Source of the DNA: Escherichia coli
GTDB taxonomy: Bacteria; Pseudomonadota; Gammaproteobacteria; Enterobacterales; Enterobacteriaceae
Length of the DNA: 64,000 bases
Strand: one strand, 5' to 3'
NCBI RefSeq assembly: GCF_024223415.1
Contig: NZ_CP100500.1
The translations under genes and the position numbers were made by a program. Of the stretch, positions 11,572 through 15,759 are shown piece by piece (position 1 is the first letter of the stretch; each line of letters begins with the position of its first letter). The notes under the pieces were generated by a model. It made no database searches. It saw only the letters and a program-made list of their open reading frames with translations, and was not told the DNA's origin.

Positions 11572-12011
11572 TGACTCCAAAAAGTTGGACAGTTGTAGTT
11601 GAGCACAAAATCAGGACTCCGGGATAACCTGTTTCCACTTTTCTTCATGTAGCCAAGGCGGTAAACCATCGTTGTTCGTGTGAGGTCGATAAACGTTATA
11701 ATAACCATTAATCCACTGGTTTATATCGCGTACCGCATGGCTAAAATCACCATACCACCTTTCGGAAACCATTCACTTTTAAGGCTGCGAAAGACTCTTT
11801 CCATCGGCGAATTATCCAGGCAATTCCCTCTGCGTCTCATACTTTGCATTACCCCATAACGCCAGAGTAACTTTCTGTATTTATTGCTTTTATACTGAAC
11901 ACCCAGATCTGAATGAAACAGCTGGTGGCCATCACGCGGTCGCGTTTCCCGTGCATTACGCAAAGCCCTACACACCAACTCAGCATCAGCGGTTAATGAG
12001 AGGGCTGAACC
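11572..12011 (-). pseudogene. IS3-family transposase orfB 3' portion (left arm of an IS3-family element split by IS66)
   Basis: Encodes ...[53 protein letters not shown]... and ...QWINGYYNVYRPHTNNDGLPPWLHEEKWKQVIPES* (stop at 11611-11613) in shifted frames. Confidence 0.65.
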
Positions 12012-12048
12012 GTAAGCGTACAGCGAGGGCCGTATTGACGGGGATGTG

Positions 12049-13587
12049 TTATTCAGCTGGCAGTGCTATGCGCCACGGAAGCAGTTCGCTGACCCGGTTG
12101 ACCGGCCAGTCTGCTATGACGCCAAGCACATGGCGAAGGTAGCTTTCTGGATCCACGTCATTCAGTTTGCACGTCCCTATCAGGCTGTACAGTAGCGCTC
12201 CCCGCTCACCACCATGGCCAGAGCCGAAGAACAGGAAGTTTTTACGACCCAGACTTACCGCCCGCAGGGCATTTTCAGCGATGTTGTTGTCGATTTCCAC
12301 CCAGCCATCGTTCGCATAGTACGTCAGTGCCGGCCACTGGTTAAGTGCGTACGCGAACGCCTTCGCCAACTCTGAGTGTCGCGACAGGGTCTTCATCTTT
12401 TCACGCAACCAGCTTTCCAGGGATTTCAACAGCGGTTTCGTTTTTCGCTGACGTTCAGCAAGCCGCTGCTCTGCCGGCATTCCCCTTATATCCGCCTCTA
12501 TGGCGTACAACTGACCGATCTGCTCCAGGGCTTCTTCCGTCAGTGCTGACGGGATGCGGACGTGCACATCGTGGATCTTTCGGCGGGCATGAGCCCAGCA
12601 GGCAGCTTCCGTTATCCCACCATTGCGATACAGCTCGTTGAACCCGGCGTACGCATCCGCTTGCAGCACACCGCTGAAGCAAGCAAGATGAGTCTGCGGA
12701 TGGATGCCTTTTCTGTCCGGGCTGTAAGCGAACCACACTGCAGGTGCCAACGCTGACCCGGCATTGCGGTCATCACGAACATACGCCCACAACCGCCCGG
12801 TCTTCGTCTTCTTATTACCCGGCATCAGTACCTGGACCGGGGTATCATCGGCATGGAGTTTGCCGTCAGTCATGACATAGCCATGAAGCGCCTCTTCCAG
12901 CGGAGACAGCAGCCGGCAGCATGCATCCACCCAGCCCGACAGCAGTGAACGGCTCAGCTCCACACCTTGCCGGCCGTATATTTCTGACTGGCGATACAGC
13001 GGGGTGTGCTCTGCATACTTCGAGGTCAGCACGCGGGCCAGCAGCCCCGGTCCGGCGATACCCCGCTCGATGGGCCGCGAAGGTGCAGGTGCCTGCACGA
13101 TGGCATCGCACTGAGTACAGGCATGTTTTTCCCGTACCGTCCGGATAACCCGGAAGGCGCTACGCATCAACTCCAGCTGTTCGGCGGTATCCTCGCCCAG
13201 ATAGCTCAGTGAACCGCCGCAGTTCGGGCAGCACGGCGCCGCAGGCAACAGTCGCTTTTCGTCACGGGGTAGTGATTCAGGGAACGGCTTACGGATGCGG
13301 GTCTGACGCAACGGACGCTGTACTGCCGGGTCATACACCCTACCAGTCAGCGTATCGCTCTCTTTCTGAAGCTGGTTCAGATCGGCTTCCATTTGTGCGA
13401 TACGGCGGGAGACTTTTTCGGAACGACTGCCGAAGTTCATCCGGCGGAGTTTATCCAGCTGCGCCTGCAGATGGTCTATTTCGCGCTCCCGGTTGCTCAG
13501 CTTTTCCTGCAGGGCGTGGATCAGCGCTTCCTGTTCGGCCAGGCGCTGTTTCAGCAGGAAGATGTCGTCAGAAGAGATGTCGTTCAT
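12049..13587 (-). CDS. tnpC: IS66 family transposase (TnpC)
   Basis: 512 aa; N-terminal coiled-coil/leucine-zipper region, CxxC zinc-finger region (CCPNCGGS...CTQCD), C-terminal ...[35 protein letters not shown] typical of IS66 transposases. Confidence 0.9.
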
Positions 13588-13636
13588 AAGCCCGTATTTT
13601 ACCGGGCTTATTCTGTGACAACCAGGATAAAGAGAT

Positions 13637-13984
13637 TTACAGCATGGTCAGGGAGGTCAGCAGCCGCTTAGGCTGTCGCCAGTCGATACCTTCCAGCAGC
13701 ATCGCCAGCTGCGCCTGTGTAAGGAACACTTTGCCATCACGGGCTGACGGCCAGGCGAAGCGCCCACGCTCCAGCCGTTTGGTCAGGAGGCACAGTCCGT
13801 CACCGGTGGACCACAGCAGTTTAACCTGACTGCCGCTGCGGCCCCGGAAAATGAAAACATGGCCGGACATGGGATCGTCTTTCAGCGCCGTCTGTACTTT
13901 CGCAGCCAGGCCGTTGAAGCCATTTCTCATATCGGTGATACCGGCAACCAGCCAAATTTTGGTCCCGGAAGGTAAAGGGATCAT
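13637..13984 (-). CDS. tnpB: IS66 family accessory protein TnpB (orf2)
   Basis: 115 aa [31 protein letters not shown]...; position and size typical of IS66 orf2; overlaps tnpA stop. Confidence 0.85.
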
Positions 13985-14382
13985 CGCTTCAGTTCCTGTA
14001 TCAGCAGAGTCAGGAGCTTTTCGCTGACATTGCCATTGAAGCGGAGCGTCCCGTGCCGGAACGTTACCTCACAGCTGATACTGAGGGTTTCCGGGTCCTC
14101 TGCGAGCGATTCTGGCTGTTCGGCAGCTGCATCGAGAGTCACAGGAAGTAGCTGGGGGCTCTCTGAAGAAGGTAATAGCAGCTTTCCCTCGCGCCATTGT
14201 TGTCGCCATTTGAACAACAGATTGGCGTTAATGCCATTTTCAAGAGCAAGTTTTGAGATGGATATCCCGGGTTCACAGGAGGCAGCAACGAGCTGCTGTT
14301 TAAATTCGGGAGGATAATTAGGGCAGCCTTTTCGCCTGCCGGGAGTCACATTTTTCTGCATATCTGACACTTTGGTTCCCAC
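13981..14382 (-). CDS. tnpA: IS66 family accessory protein TnpA (orf1)
   Basis: 133 aa with HTH-like ...ISISKLALENGINANLLFKWRQQW...; first gene of the IS66 operon. Confidence 0.8.
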   Translation of the reverse strand: MGTKVSDMQKNVTPGRRKGCPNYPPEFKQQLVAASCEPGISISKLALENGINANLLFKWRQQWREGKLLLPSSESPQLLPVTLDAAAEQPESLAEDPETLSISCEVTFRHGTLRFNGNVSEKLLTLLIQELKR

Positions 14383-14453
14383 TACTTATTTGGTGGACAC
14401 CACTTTGTCTAATTCGTCAGATTCTGACCAGACGGTTCAGGCTGTACGCTTAC

Positions 14454-15226
14454 GCTGAACCGATAATCCGCCGTGAATATAAATCAACAACGAGTGCGAG
14501 ATAACACCATTTGTCCTGCAGGCGAATAAAACTGATGTTGCCGCACCAGACGCGGTTTGGTGCGGCGGGGTGAAATTGCCGGTTCAGTAAATTTGGCAAT
14601 GGCGGACTTTTGTCTTCGTTTACCCGGTAGTGATGTTTAACTGGCTGTCGACTTGTCAGCCCGCATTCCCGCATCAGTCGTCGTGCCAGCCACCGGCCTG
14701 CATCAACGCCACTATGGCGCAACATCTGACTGATTGCCCGGCTACCGACTGCGCCACGACTGAGAGCATGGACAGCCCTCACCCGACTTCGTAATTCAAT
14801 TCTTTGCACATTAACAGGACGCTTCACCTGCGCGTAATAAATGCTACGGTGAATACCGAATAAATGACAAAGAACCCGCACTGGCCACTTTGCTTTCAGC
14901 TGTGTGATTAGCGCGACAGTTTCCCCGGGGATTTCGCTCATCAGCACGGCAGCCTGCTTTAGTATTTCTTTTTCCATCTCAGGGCGCTTTATCTGCGCTT
15001 TAAGCTGCTTAATTTAGCGTTGTTCAGGAGTAATAGCATTACCAGCGGGCTCAATACCCTGAAGTTCCTGCTTATACAACCGTATCTATTTACGCAAATG
15101 GTCAGGGTTGAGCTCGAGTGCCAGCGCGACTTCTCTGACATCACGCTGGTATTTAACCACCTGTTCGATAGCTTCAAGCTTGAACTCCGGGGAAAAGGTA
15201 CGTTTAGTCCGACGAGTTTTGATCAT
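14454..15226 (-). pseudogene. IS3-family transposase orfA plus orfB 5' portion (right arm of the element split by IS66)
   Basis: orfA from ATG at 15226: MIKTRRTKRTFSPEFKLEAIEQVVKYQRDV... with in-frame stops; orfB N-terminus ...NLLNRQFHPAAPNRVWCGNISFIRLQDKWCYLALVVDLYSRRIIGSA runs into the IS66 target site; the reading frame continues on the far side of IS66. Confidence 0.65.
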
Positions 15227-15365
15227 GCATCACCTCATTTTCACTTTTTAACATTAACAGTGAAAATGAGGTGTCCTGAATTACCGATCCACTACACAGA
15301 GAGTGACCAAAGGATAACGTGTCCTGAGTTTCCCTATTATAGAGAACTGTTCAGGGAGGCTGACA

Positions 15366-15638
15366 TCAAGAGTGCAGTAGCCTTTTTAATATTTCATTCT
15401 CCATTTCAATGCGTTGTAGCTTTTTCCTCAGCTCACGTATTTCGATTTGTTCTGGTGTCATCGGAGAGGCTTTTAGTGTTTTGCCCTGACGCTCATCACG
15501 CAGTTGTTTGACCCATCTTGTCATTGTGGAAAGGCCGATATCCATAGCTTTGGCGGCATCTGCCACCGTATAGTTCTGGTCAACAACCAGTTGGGCGGAT
15601 TAGCGTTTAAACTCTGCGCTAAAATTTCTTTTTTTCAT
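15366..15638 (-). pseudogene. IS911-like orfA remnant with premature stop
   Basis: Minus strand from ATG at 15638: MKKRNFSAEFKR* then ...[41 protein letters not shown]...[20 protein letters not shown], matching the recalled IS911 OrfA; the 3' part is replaced by the IS3-family element. Confidence 0.7.
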
Positions 15639-15759
15639 TAGGGCACCAGTCTTGTTCTGAGGTGAGCATATCACCTCTGTTCAGGTGACCAAATTCAGTG
15701 TGCCATTTCAGTCTGTAATGCGCTGTGTGAAAAAGCTCACTGACAGTCTGAGTATTTGT

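Follow-up and report, generated by a model that had tools for sequence, protein, structure and literature searches.

Nested insertion sequences in a remnant cluster beside an autotransporter gene of an Escherichia coli genomic island

The 64,000-nucleotide stretch of Escherichia coli DNA analyzed here (the window) carries, at positions 11567 to 16139, an ordinary pile-up of insertion sequence (IS) remnants on a genomic island of E. coli type. Five IS elements or fragments are stacked there: an intact ISEc8 lies within a dead ISKpn37-like element, which is found in turn among fragments of IS150, IS911, and an IS110-family element. We are highly confident that serial insertion of one IS into another, together with at least one rearrangement, produced this IS “graveyard,” which lies downstream of a gene for a serine-protease autotransporter. 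All boundaries, the 8-bp duplication, the empty site, the element identities, and the lesions are observed directly, the elements being named from their PGAP labels and their identity to annotated copies. The initial annotation had described three successive transposition events; the nesting holds, but the count does not, because there are five elements and a deletion or recombination is needed as well.

The elements are known and their biology is ordinary; neither a new mechanism nor a new family is implied. Nothing suggests that the cluster has a function beyond marking a site where mobile DNA has repeatedly landed. An Rfam scan of 11300 to 16500 returned no matches, and no further copies turned up when the region was searched by BLAST against the entire window. 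The exact borders of the five pieces have value for annotation and little importance beyond it: since PGAP labels most of the pieces merely “transposase,” exact boundaries prevent misannotation.

An intact ISEc8 and its target duplication

ISEc8, first described in E. coli O157:H7, is represented by an intact 2442-bp copy at 12012 to 14453 on the minus strand. It was recognized by NCBIfam and Pfam profiles and by near-identical copies, those 99 to 100% identical to it being labeled “IS66-like element ISEc8 family” by PGAP. Its three genes lie consecutively on the minus strand and are all open: tnpA (about 14361 to 13981, the longest open reading frame starting at 14382), tnpB (13984 to 13637), and tnpC (13587 to 12049), the last with a DDE domain of IS66 type, as expected of the IS66 family. 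The products of tnpC (IS66 transposase, NF033517; 457 bits), tnpB (IS66 TnpB, NF033819; 120 bits), and tnpA (IS66-like TnpA, NF047595; 97 bits) all scored over the NCBIfam cut-offs, and the Pfam matches were DDE_Tnp_IS66, zf-IS66, and TnpB_IS66. The termini, GTAAGCGTACAGCGAGGGCCGT and GTAAGCGTACAGCCTGAACCGT, have the GTAAGCG start of the IS66 family, and the terminal inverted repeats, starting GTAAGCGTACAG, are imperfect, with 19 of 23 nt complementary. The extent of this element and the target duplication beside it had been given exactly in the initial annotation.

IS66-family elements duplicate 8 bp of their target (PMC6778807), and GCTGAACC is perfectly repeated on the two sides of ISEc8, at 12004 to 12011 and at 14454 to 14461; empty-site alleles have a single copy. 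Three other 2442-bp copies of ISEc8 each carry a perfect 8-bp duplication of their own (ACAGAACG, GGATCAAT, and TTTTTAGA), so that the ends of the element and the 8-bp rule are fixed independently of this locus. With the ends set in that way by other copies, the chance of an 8-bp match here is about 1.5e-5. The four duplications examined have no obvious common consensus. A BLAST extension over GCTGAACC had suggested an ISEc8 on an Escherichia fergusonii plasmid as sharing this target, a candidate that was rejected because its flanks differ, the extension reflecting chance similarity. To judge from its sequence, ISEc8 looks able to move and is the sole element at the locus that appears mobile.

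A dead IS3-family element with mismatched flanks

The element interrupted by ISEc8 is an ISKpn37-like pseudo-element of the IS3 family on the minus strand, which spans 11594 to 15296 with ISEc8 inside it. Its 3′ part (nt 836 to 1253) occupies 11594 to 12011 and carries the C-terminal coding region of orfB along with the right inverted repeat; its 5′ part (nt 1 to 835) occupies 14462 to 15296 and carries orfA, the N-terminal coding region of orfB, and the left inverted repeat. When ISEc8 and one copy of GCTGAACC are removed, what remains is a 1253-bp element with 96.8% identity to ISKpn37, and the IS3-family reading frame is continuous across the site, which bears out the earlier placement of an IS66 element inside an IS3-family orfB whose frame continues.

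The ends of the restored element, TGTAGTGGATCGG... and ...CTCAACTACA, have the 5′-TG...CA-3′ form of the IS3 family and belong to 27-nt inverted repeats (11594 to 11620 and 15270 to 15296) that are 74% complementary; they are common to six independent full-length copies with differing flanks. These repeats and shared ends put the start of the element at 11594. The initial annotation had started it at 11572, a difference of 22 bp, and had taken in sequence that belongs to the end of IS150. Full-length colinear copies at 95 to 96% identity are present in 330 E. coli genomes, at up to six places per genome.

Once repaired, the ISKpn37-like product matches the NCBIfam IS3 model NF033516 (331 bits, positions 1 to 365 of 369) and the Pfam families HTH_Tnp_1, HTH_21, rve, and rve_3, and it has the IS3-family arrangement of an orfA HTH and an orfB rve DDE domain linked by a −1 frameshift; the window copy itself is disrupted. 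Two in-frame stops interrupt its orfA, an extra G is present at nt 371 in the 5′ part, and a 1-nt deletion in the 3′ part of orfB has removed a T after nt 1092. The first catalytic Asp has been replaced by Asn (WCGDISFI of the reference reads WCGNISFI in the window), so that the DDE triad is not intact; the stops and frameshifts add to the damage. The window copy is dead, a pseudogene.

On the side of the autotransporter gene lies a stub of the IS150 right end (11567 to 11593, minus strand), its outer end toward that gene and comprising the last 27 bp of the element, or 28 if an ambiguous T at 11594 is counted. Of the 28 terminal positions of K-12 IS150 (TGTACTGACCCCAAAAAGTTGGACAGTT), 27 agree with the stub, TGTACTGACTCCAAAAAGTTGGACAGT(T), and this end sequence occurs once in the window, where none is expected by chance.

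On the other side, at 15297 to 15710 (minus strand), is an IS911-like left fragment corresponding to IS911 nt 1 to 414, delimited by a gapless alignment, from nt 1, to a PGAP-annotated 1248-bp IS911 copy (386 of 414 nt identical). Its 7% divergence indicates an isoform or relative of IS911 rather than IS911 proper. The fragment retains the left inverted repeat, the whole of orfA, and 69 nt past the orfA stop; it stops at nt 414 and is incomplete, lacking both the right inverted repeat and orfB. Codon 13 of orfA is changed from GAA to the stop TAA. The initial annotation had this orfA apparently truncated by the IS3-family element, but the cut at nt 414 lies 69 nt beyond the orfA stop, so that orfA is whole and what has been lost is orfB and the right end. 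It had also ended the IS911 piece at 15705, 5 bp short of the left end at 15710; matches to the fragment in other genomes begin at 15710 or 15711. Two of its four outer coordinates were thus inexact.

The fifth element, overlooked in the initial annotation, is a 3′ fragment of an IS110-family element (15711 to 16139, plus strand), identified by homology to an annotated IS110 family transposase. It consists of the last 60 codons (15712 to 15891) and a noncoding tail of at least 245 bp, the left end of IS911 having interrupted the transposase gene near codon 284. The 60 C-terminal residues are 86.7% identical (E value, 2e-26) to the annotated transposase on a Klebsiella aerogenes plasmid, and the DNA is 94% identical to the plasmid element (403 of 429 nt); the NCBIfam IS110 match of the fragment is weak.

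The ISKpn37-like copy has no 3- to 4-bp target duplication: its flanks are CTG and ACT. Intact relatives do have duplications of this size (CTG in one copy, and the 4-bp GAAC of ISKpn37 itself), and the absence of one in the window points to later rearrangement rather than to nonmembership in the IS3 family. On its far side the element is followed not by IS911 but by the IS150 stub and the terminator of the autotransporter gene. With no duplication, IS911 on one side, and the IS150 stub on the other, a simple insertion is insufficient; either a deletion or recombination between copies is needed.

The type of rearrangement we infer, and two accounts of it deserve serious weight. Two ISKpn37-like copies in direct orientation, one in IS150 and one in IS911, may have recombined with deletion of the intervening DNA, an account that we rate as credible although a little short of an even chance. 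It fits the unlike flanks, the small duplications of the intact relatives, and the multicopy state of the element in E. coli. However, a search of 5426 complete genomes detected neither parental junction (the right end adjoining IS911 from nt 415 onward, or the left end adjoining inner IS150), and queries with synthetic junctions detected no ISKpn37-like element having IS911 on both sides or IS150 on both sides in those genomes. The sole matches joining both query halves were an unrelated abutment of IS150 and IS911 in E2348/69-type genomes.

Alternatively, a single insertion could have been followed by a deletion from the exact end of the ISKpn37-like element, by intramolecular transposition into a nearby IS end; we hold this, too, to be a real prospect at somewhat under even odds. 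Both breakpoints are exact element termini, on one side the target is a different IS3-family element's terminal inverted repeat, and IS911 is reported to target sequences resembling its own ends. Abutting ends of IS3-family elements are known from elsewhere too: in E2348/69 the IS911 left end lies within about 1 bp of the IS150 right end, as deduced from a 677-bp span. Direct evidence for such a deletion is lacking, however, and because the copy is now catalytically dead, the event must have preceded its decay or been driven in trans.

The empty site and the order of events

The site into which ISEc8 inserted is preserved empty in BEN2908 and strain 26561 (...GAGAGGGCTGAACCGATAATCC..., with one GCTGAACC), and at least 25 listed E. 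coli genomes have it uninterrupted, at 100% identity over 1375 bp. Because all 25 listed genomes are identical there, lesions within the 1375-bp stretch predate ISEc8, and the ISKpn37-like element was already dead when ISEc8 arrived. The empty-site genomes all bear another ISEc8, inverted, 27 bp away, and without a duplication, which makes the local history more complicated than one linear sequence. ISEc8 itself is the youngest element at the locus, since it is intact, has a perfect duplication, and matches a GPEC1040 copy along all 2442 bp (100% identity), and since the empty-site alleles are also 100% identical.

That ISEc8 never inserted here and the two halves were joined by homologous recombination between ISEc8 copies in different ISKpn37-like elements is highly improbable and already disfavored: such recombination does occur, as several ISEc8 copies elsewhere without target duplications attest, the halves in AR_0085 lie 128 kb apart, each beside IS66-family elements, and the same reasoning has been applied to IS66 in Agrobacterium (PMC6778807), but copies from different sites would leave unlike flanks, whereas the flanks here share an identical 8-bp repeat, rejoining them gives a colinear 1253 bp with no base gained or lost, and the empty site exists at 100% identity.

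For the older events, whose order we infer, the following history would account for the locus. An IS110-family element would have lain upstream of a PhoX-family gene and, separately, an IS150 just past the autotransporter terminator; an IS911-like element would then have entered the IS110-family transposase gene. The ISKpn37-like element would have come next, so placed that its left end met IS911 at nt 414 while its right end lay 27 bp away from the right terminus of IS150; this would have taken one insertion plus either an IS-end-adjacent deletion or recombination between two ISKpn37-like copies. The rest of IS911 and of IS150 would have been lost in that step, as would the 5′ portion of the IS110-family element. 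Last, after decay of the ISKpn37-like copy, an active ISEc8 made a simple insertion into its orfB, duplicating the 8 bp GCTGAACC. The succession from IS911 through the IS3-family element to IS66 proposed in the initial annotation is supported by the intact state of ISEc8 and by the ISKpn37-like element, of which both ends are complete and the left one abuts IS911 internally.

The cluster is the seam joining the autotransporter module to the PhoX-family module. The left half of the structure (autotransporter gene, IS150 stub, and ISKpn37-like 3′ end) is present in 28 genomes, and 41 contain the right half as far as the PhoX-family gene, that gene included. The whole nested structure was found at 80% coverage or more in none of the 5426 complete E. 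coli genomes nor in PLSDB. The full uninterrupted ancestral allele was likewise found in no complete E. coli genome or PLSDB record, the best matches covering 70% and spanning the empty site at 100% identity, so that the ancestral state is reconstructed, not observed. In other strains the two modules are split or rearranged by IS66-family elements, and the island could plausibly be rearranged further by way of the intact ISEc8.

ISEc8 lies in ISKpn37-like elements at three positions in unrelated records: nt 836 to 843 in the window, about nt 870 in the BEN2908 type, and about nt 476 to 486 on a dog E. coli plasmid. Three positions in a 1.25-kb element could mean that an IS66-family element preferentially targets this IS or the structure of its DNA. 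We nonetheless think it unlikely that ISEc8 prefers to land in ISKpn37-like elements and, as a separate proposition, that the window holds the only known ancestral link between the autotransporter and PhoX-family modules of an ExPEC/APEC island.

Comparison with known elements and clusters

The intact, PGAP-named ISKpn37 of the Klebsiella oxytoca plasmid pKPC_CAV1099 has the same 1253 bp and the same inverted repeats (TGTAGTGGATCGGTAATTCAGGACACC...), with an orfA and an orfB in the −1 frame; the repaired window copy shares 96.8% of its nucleotides and 94% of its amino acids. Unlike that reference, the window copy has two orfA stops, one base extra and one missing, the Asp-to-Asn change, an ISEc8, and no duplication. 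The IS911-like fragment is colinear with IS911 at 93% over nt 1 to 414, but only the left third is kept, with a stop at codon 13; IS150, with 27 of 28 right-end terminal bases the same, survives in the window only as a terminal stub. Other copies of ISEc8 have the same 2442 bp, tnpA-tnpB-tnpC layout, GTAAGCG termini, and 8-bp duplication; nothing notable differs in the window copy, which merely occupies a new insertion site.

The exact combination seen in the window was not found in the complete E. coli genomes or PLSDB, but its elements also interrupt one another in other genomes. The IS-within-IS clusters of E. coli and Shigella pathogenicity islands and virulence plasmids likewise hold a young, intact IS inside decayed older ones, beside virulence genes.

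ISEc8 insertion and its empty site

We inspected the sequence and its open reading frames, ran a repeat search, and compared the pieces with annotated E. coli genomes and plasmids. The nested structure proposed in the initial annotation is real, with an IS66-family element occupying exactly 12012-14453 and its target duplication, GCTGAACC, present at both 12004-12011 and 14454-14461. The termini recovered by the repeat search, GTAAGCGTACAGCGAGGGCCGT and GTAAGCGTACAGCCTGAACCGT, are complementary at 19 of 23 nt and enclose three open minus-strand genes: tnpC (512 aa; NCBIfam IS66 family transposase, 457 bits; Pfam DDE_Tnp_IS66), tnpB (115 aa; IS66 TnpB, 120 bits), and tnpA (IS66-like TnpA, 97 bits). 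PGAP names near-identical copies “IS66-like element ISEc8 family,” and the window copy matches the ISEc8 of GPEC1040, a chicken strain, across all 2442 bp (100% identity). IS66 elements generate an 8-bp target duplication (PMC6778807). Three further 2442-bp ISEc8 copies have perfect 8-bp duplications of their own (ACAGAACG, GGATCAAT, and TTTTTAGA), so the ends of ISEc8 and the 8-bp rule are fixed independently of the window locus; the probability of a chance 8-bp match at ends defined beforehand is ~1.5e-5.

Excising 12012-14461 leaves a 1253-bp element in which the orfB frame is continuous over the joint, bearing out the claim that the IS66-family element lies within the orfB of an IS3-family element. 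The corresponding empty site, ...GAGAGGGCTGAACCGATAATCC..., with a single GCTGAACC, occurs in BEN2908 and strain 26561, and the 1375 bp across it are 100% identical to the window in all of the at least 25 genomes listed. ISEc8 arrived in the window by simple insertion. The empty-site genomes carry another ISEc8 27 bp away, inverted and without a duplication, which removed the remainder of their IS3-family element.

ISKpn37-like host element and its flanks

The IS3-family host extends from 11594 to 15296 on the minus strand (3' part, 11594-12011; 5' part, 14462-15296), rather than starting the cluster at 11572 as first proposed. Its inverted repeats, found by repeat search, are TGTAGTGGATCGGTAATTCAGGACACC and TGTAGTTGAGCACAAAATCAGGACTCC, and six independent full-length copies with unrelated flanks have the same end bases. 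Once ISEc8 and one duplication copy are removed, nt 1-1253 of the element show 96.8% identity to an intact element on Klebsiella oxytoca plasmid pKPC_CAV1099. PGAP names this plasmid copy ISKpn37; its orfB lies in the -1 frame, and its target duplication is GAAC (4 bp). PGAP likewise labels the fragment in AR_0085 “ISKpn37 family.” The window copy is dead: in-frame stops interrupt orfA twice, the two frames are fused by a G inserted at nt 371, the T expected after nt 1092 is lost, and Asn replaces the first catalytic Asp. The lesions of the 5' part also occur in the 100%-identical empty-site genomes and are thus older than ISEc8, which inactivated no live element.

An 18-bp near-perfect hairpin (94% complementary) at 15231-15273 lies between the start of orfA and the left inverted repeat. 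It is sharper in the window than in other copies, whose left arm differs at five positions and by a 1-nt indel. The hairpin is probably the structure usual at IS 5' ends, which limits read-through expression.

On the left-end side, 15297-15710 corresponds to nt 1-414 of IS911 (386/414 nt, ungapped, against a PGAP-annotated 1248-bp copy), which moves the end of the cluster from the proposed 15705 to 15710. Nor is IS911 truncated within orfA, as had been thought: the orfA stop lies at nt 343-345, 69 nt ahead of the breakpoint, and the missing parts are orfB and the right end. This orfA has its full extent, but codon 13 is TAA. Past the right end of the ISKpn37-like element, 11567-11593 is a stub of the IS150 right terminus (27 of 28 positions match), and its initial reading as IS3-family sequence is rejected.

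The 3-bp flanks of the ISKpn37-like element, CTG and ACT, form no duplication. Simple insertion could not leave an element bordered by IS911 at one end and IS150 at the other; either a deletion or recombination between two copies is required. We consider the two about equally likely; synthetic-junction searches of 5426 complete E. coli genomes, which found neither parental junction, weigh against recombination. In E2348/69 (NC_011601.1, 1607621-1608297), the left end of IS911 apparently lies within ~1 bp of the right end of IS150, an abutment deduced from a 677-bp span against 678 bp expected; if so, the two elements whose fragments border the window's ISKpn37-like element are joined there head to tail.

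IS110-family fragment, order of events, and linkage

The fifth element of the cluster is an IS110-family 3' end at 15711-16139 on the plus strand. Over its last 60 codons, the fragment shares 86.7% identity (E 2e-26) with a transposase annotated as IS110 family on a Klebsiella aerogenes plasmid, and its DNA is 94% identical to the plasmid element over 429 bp. The intact IS911 left end interrupts the IS110-family gene at ~codon 284, making the IS110-family element the older of the two. In the noncoding tail (15895-16139), a ~157-bp stretch, especially 15978-16134, is ~85% identical to an unannotated E. coli plasmid region and accounts for most of 843 plasmid matches, several sampled ones lying ~3.9-4.1 kb into the record. 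An Rfam scan of 11300-16500 gave no match; the tail could be the noncoding, guide-RNA-type end of an IS110/IS1111-type element.

The proposed order of IS911, then the IS3-family element, then IS66 is supported and can be extended. The IS110-family element would have come first and received IS911, with IS150 independently present on the opposite side; the ISKpn37-like element would then have arrived, accompanied by one rearrangement, and decayed before ISEc8 inserted last.

Upstream of the cluster are genes for an AbgT-family transporter and a 1274-aa autotransporter, homologues of which PGAP labels “S6 family peptidase”; near-identical homologues of the downstream gene are labeled PhoX family. 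Of the complete genomes, 28 have the left half, comprising the autotransporter gene, the IS150 stub, and the 3' end of the ISKpn37-like element, and 41 have the right half, which runs from the ISKpn37-like 5' part through the IS911 and IS110 fragments to the PhoX-family gene. Joined halves, with or without ISEc8, were not found in complete E. coli genomes or PLSDB plasmids, and in AR_0085 the halves lie 128 kb apart. The window thus seems to keep the ancestral linkage of both halves, with ISEc8 the sole split.

The autotransporter gene (7669-11493) is of the serine-protease type. Its GPEC1040 homologue is 99.9% identical up to position 10453 and 97% from 10594, with ~140 bp between them (10454-10593) unaligned and protein lengths of 1274 versus 1291 aa, suggesting that part of the passenger or linker region is variable.

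Comparison with other records

Across records, ISEc8 lies within or abuts an ISKpn37-like element at three positions, namely, nt 836-843 (window), ~870 (BEN2908 type), and ~476-486 (a dog E. coli plasmid), and UTI89-type chromosomes show the reverse nesting, an IS66-family tnpA holding an ISKpn37-like element (records CP148296.1, BEN2908, 26561, AR_0085, and UTI89). These arrangements may reflect mutual targeting or simply common IS-rich islands. GPEC1040 (5231-6545 and 6823-9338), whose sequence is closest to the left half, differs from the window in three ways: its ISKpn37-like 3' part carries an IS1414 insertion flanked by an 8-bp duplication; a 66-bp fragment that looks like an IS2 left end then cuts the element; and that fragment is split by the 100%-identical ISEc8, with duplication TTTTTAGA. 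The value of the window locus lies in its correct annotation. Its five elements are all known and behave as expected, and pile-ups of this type are common in such islands.
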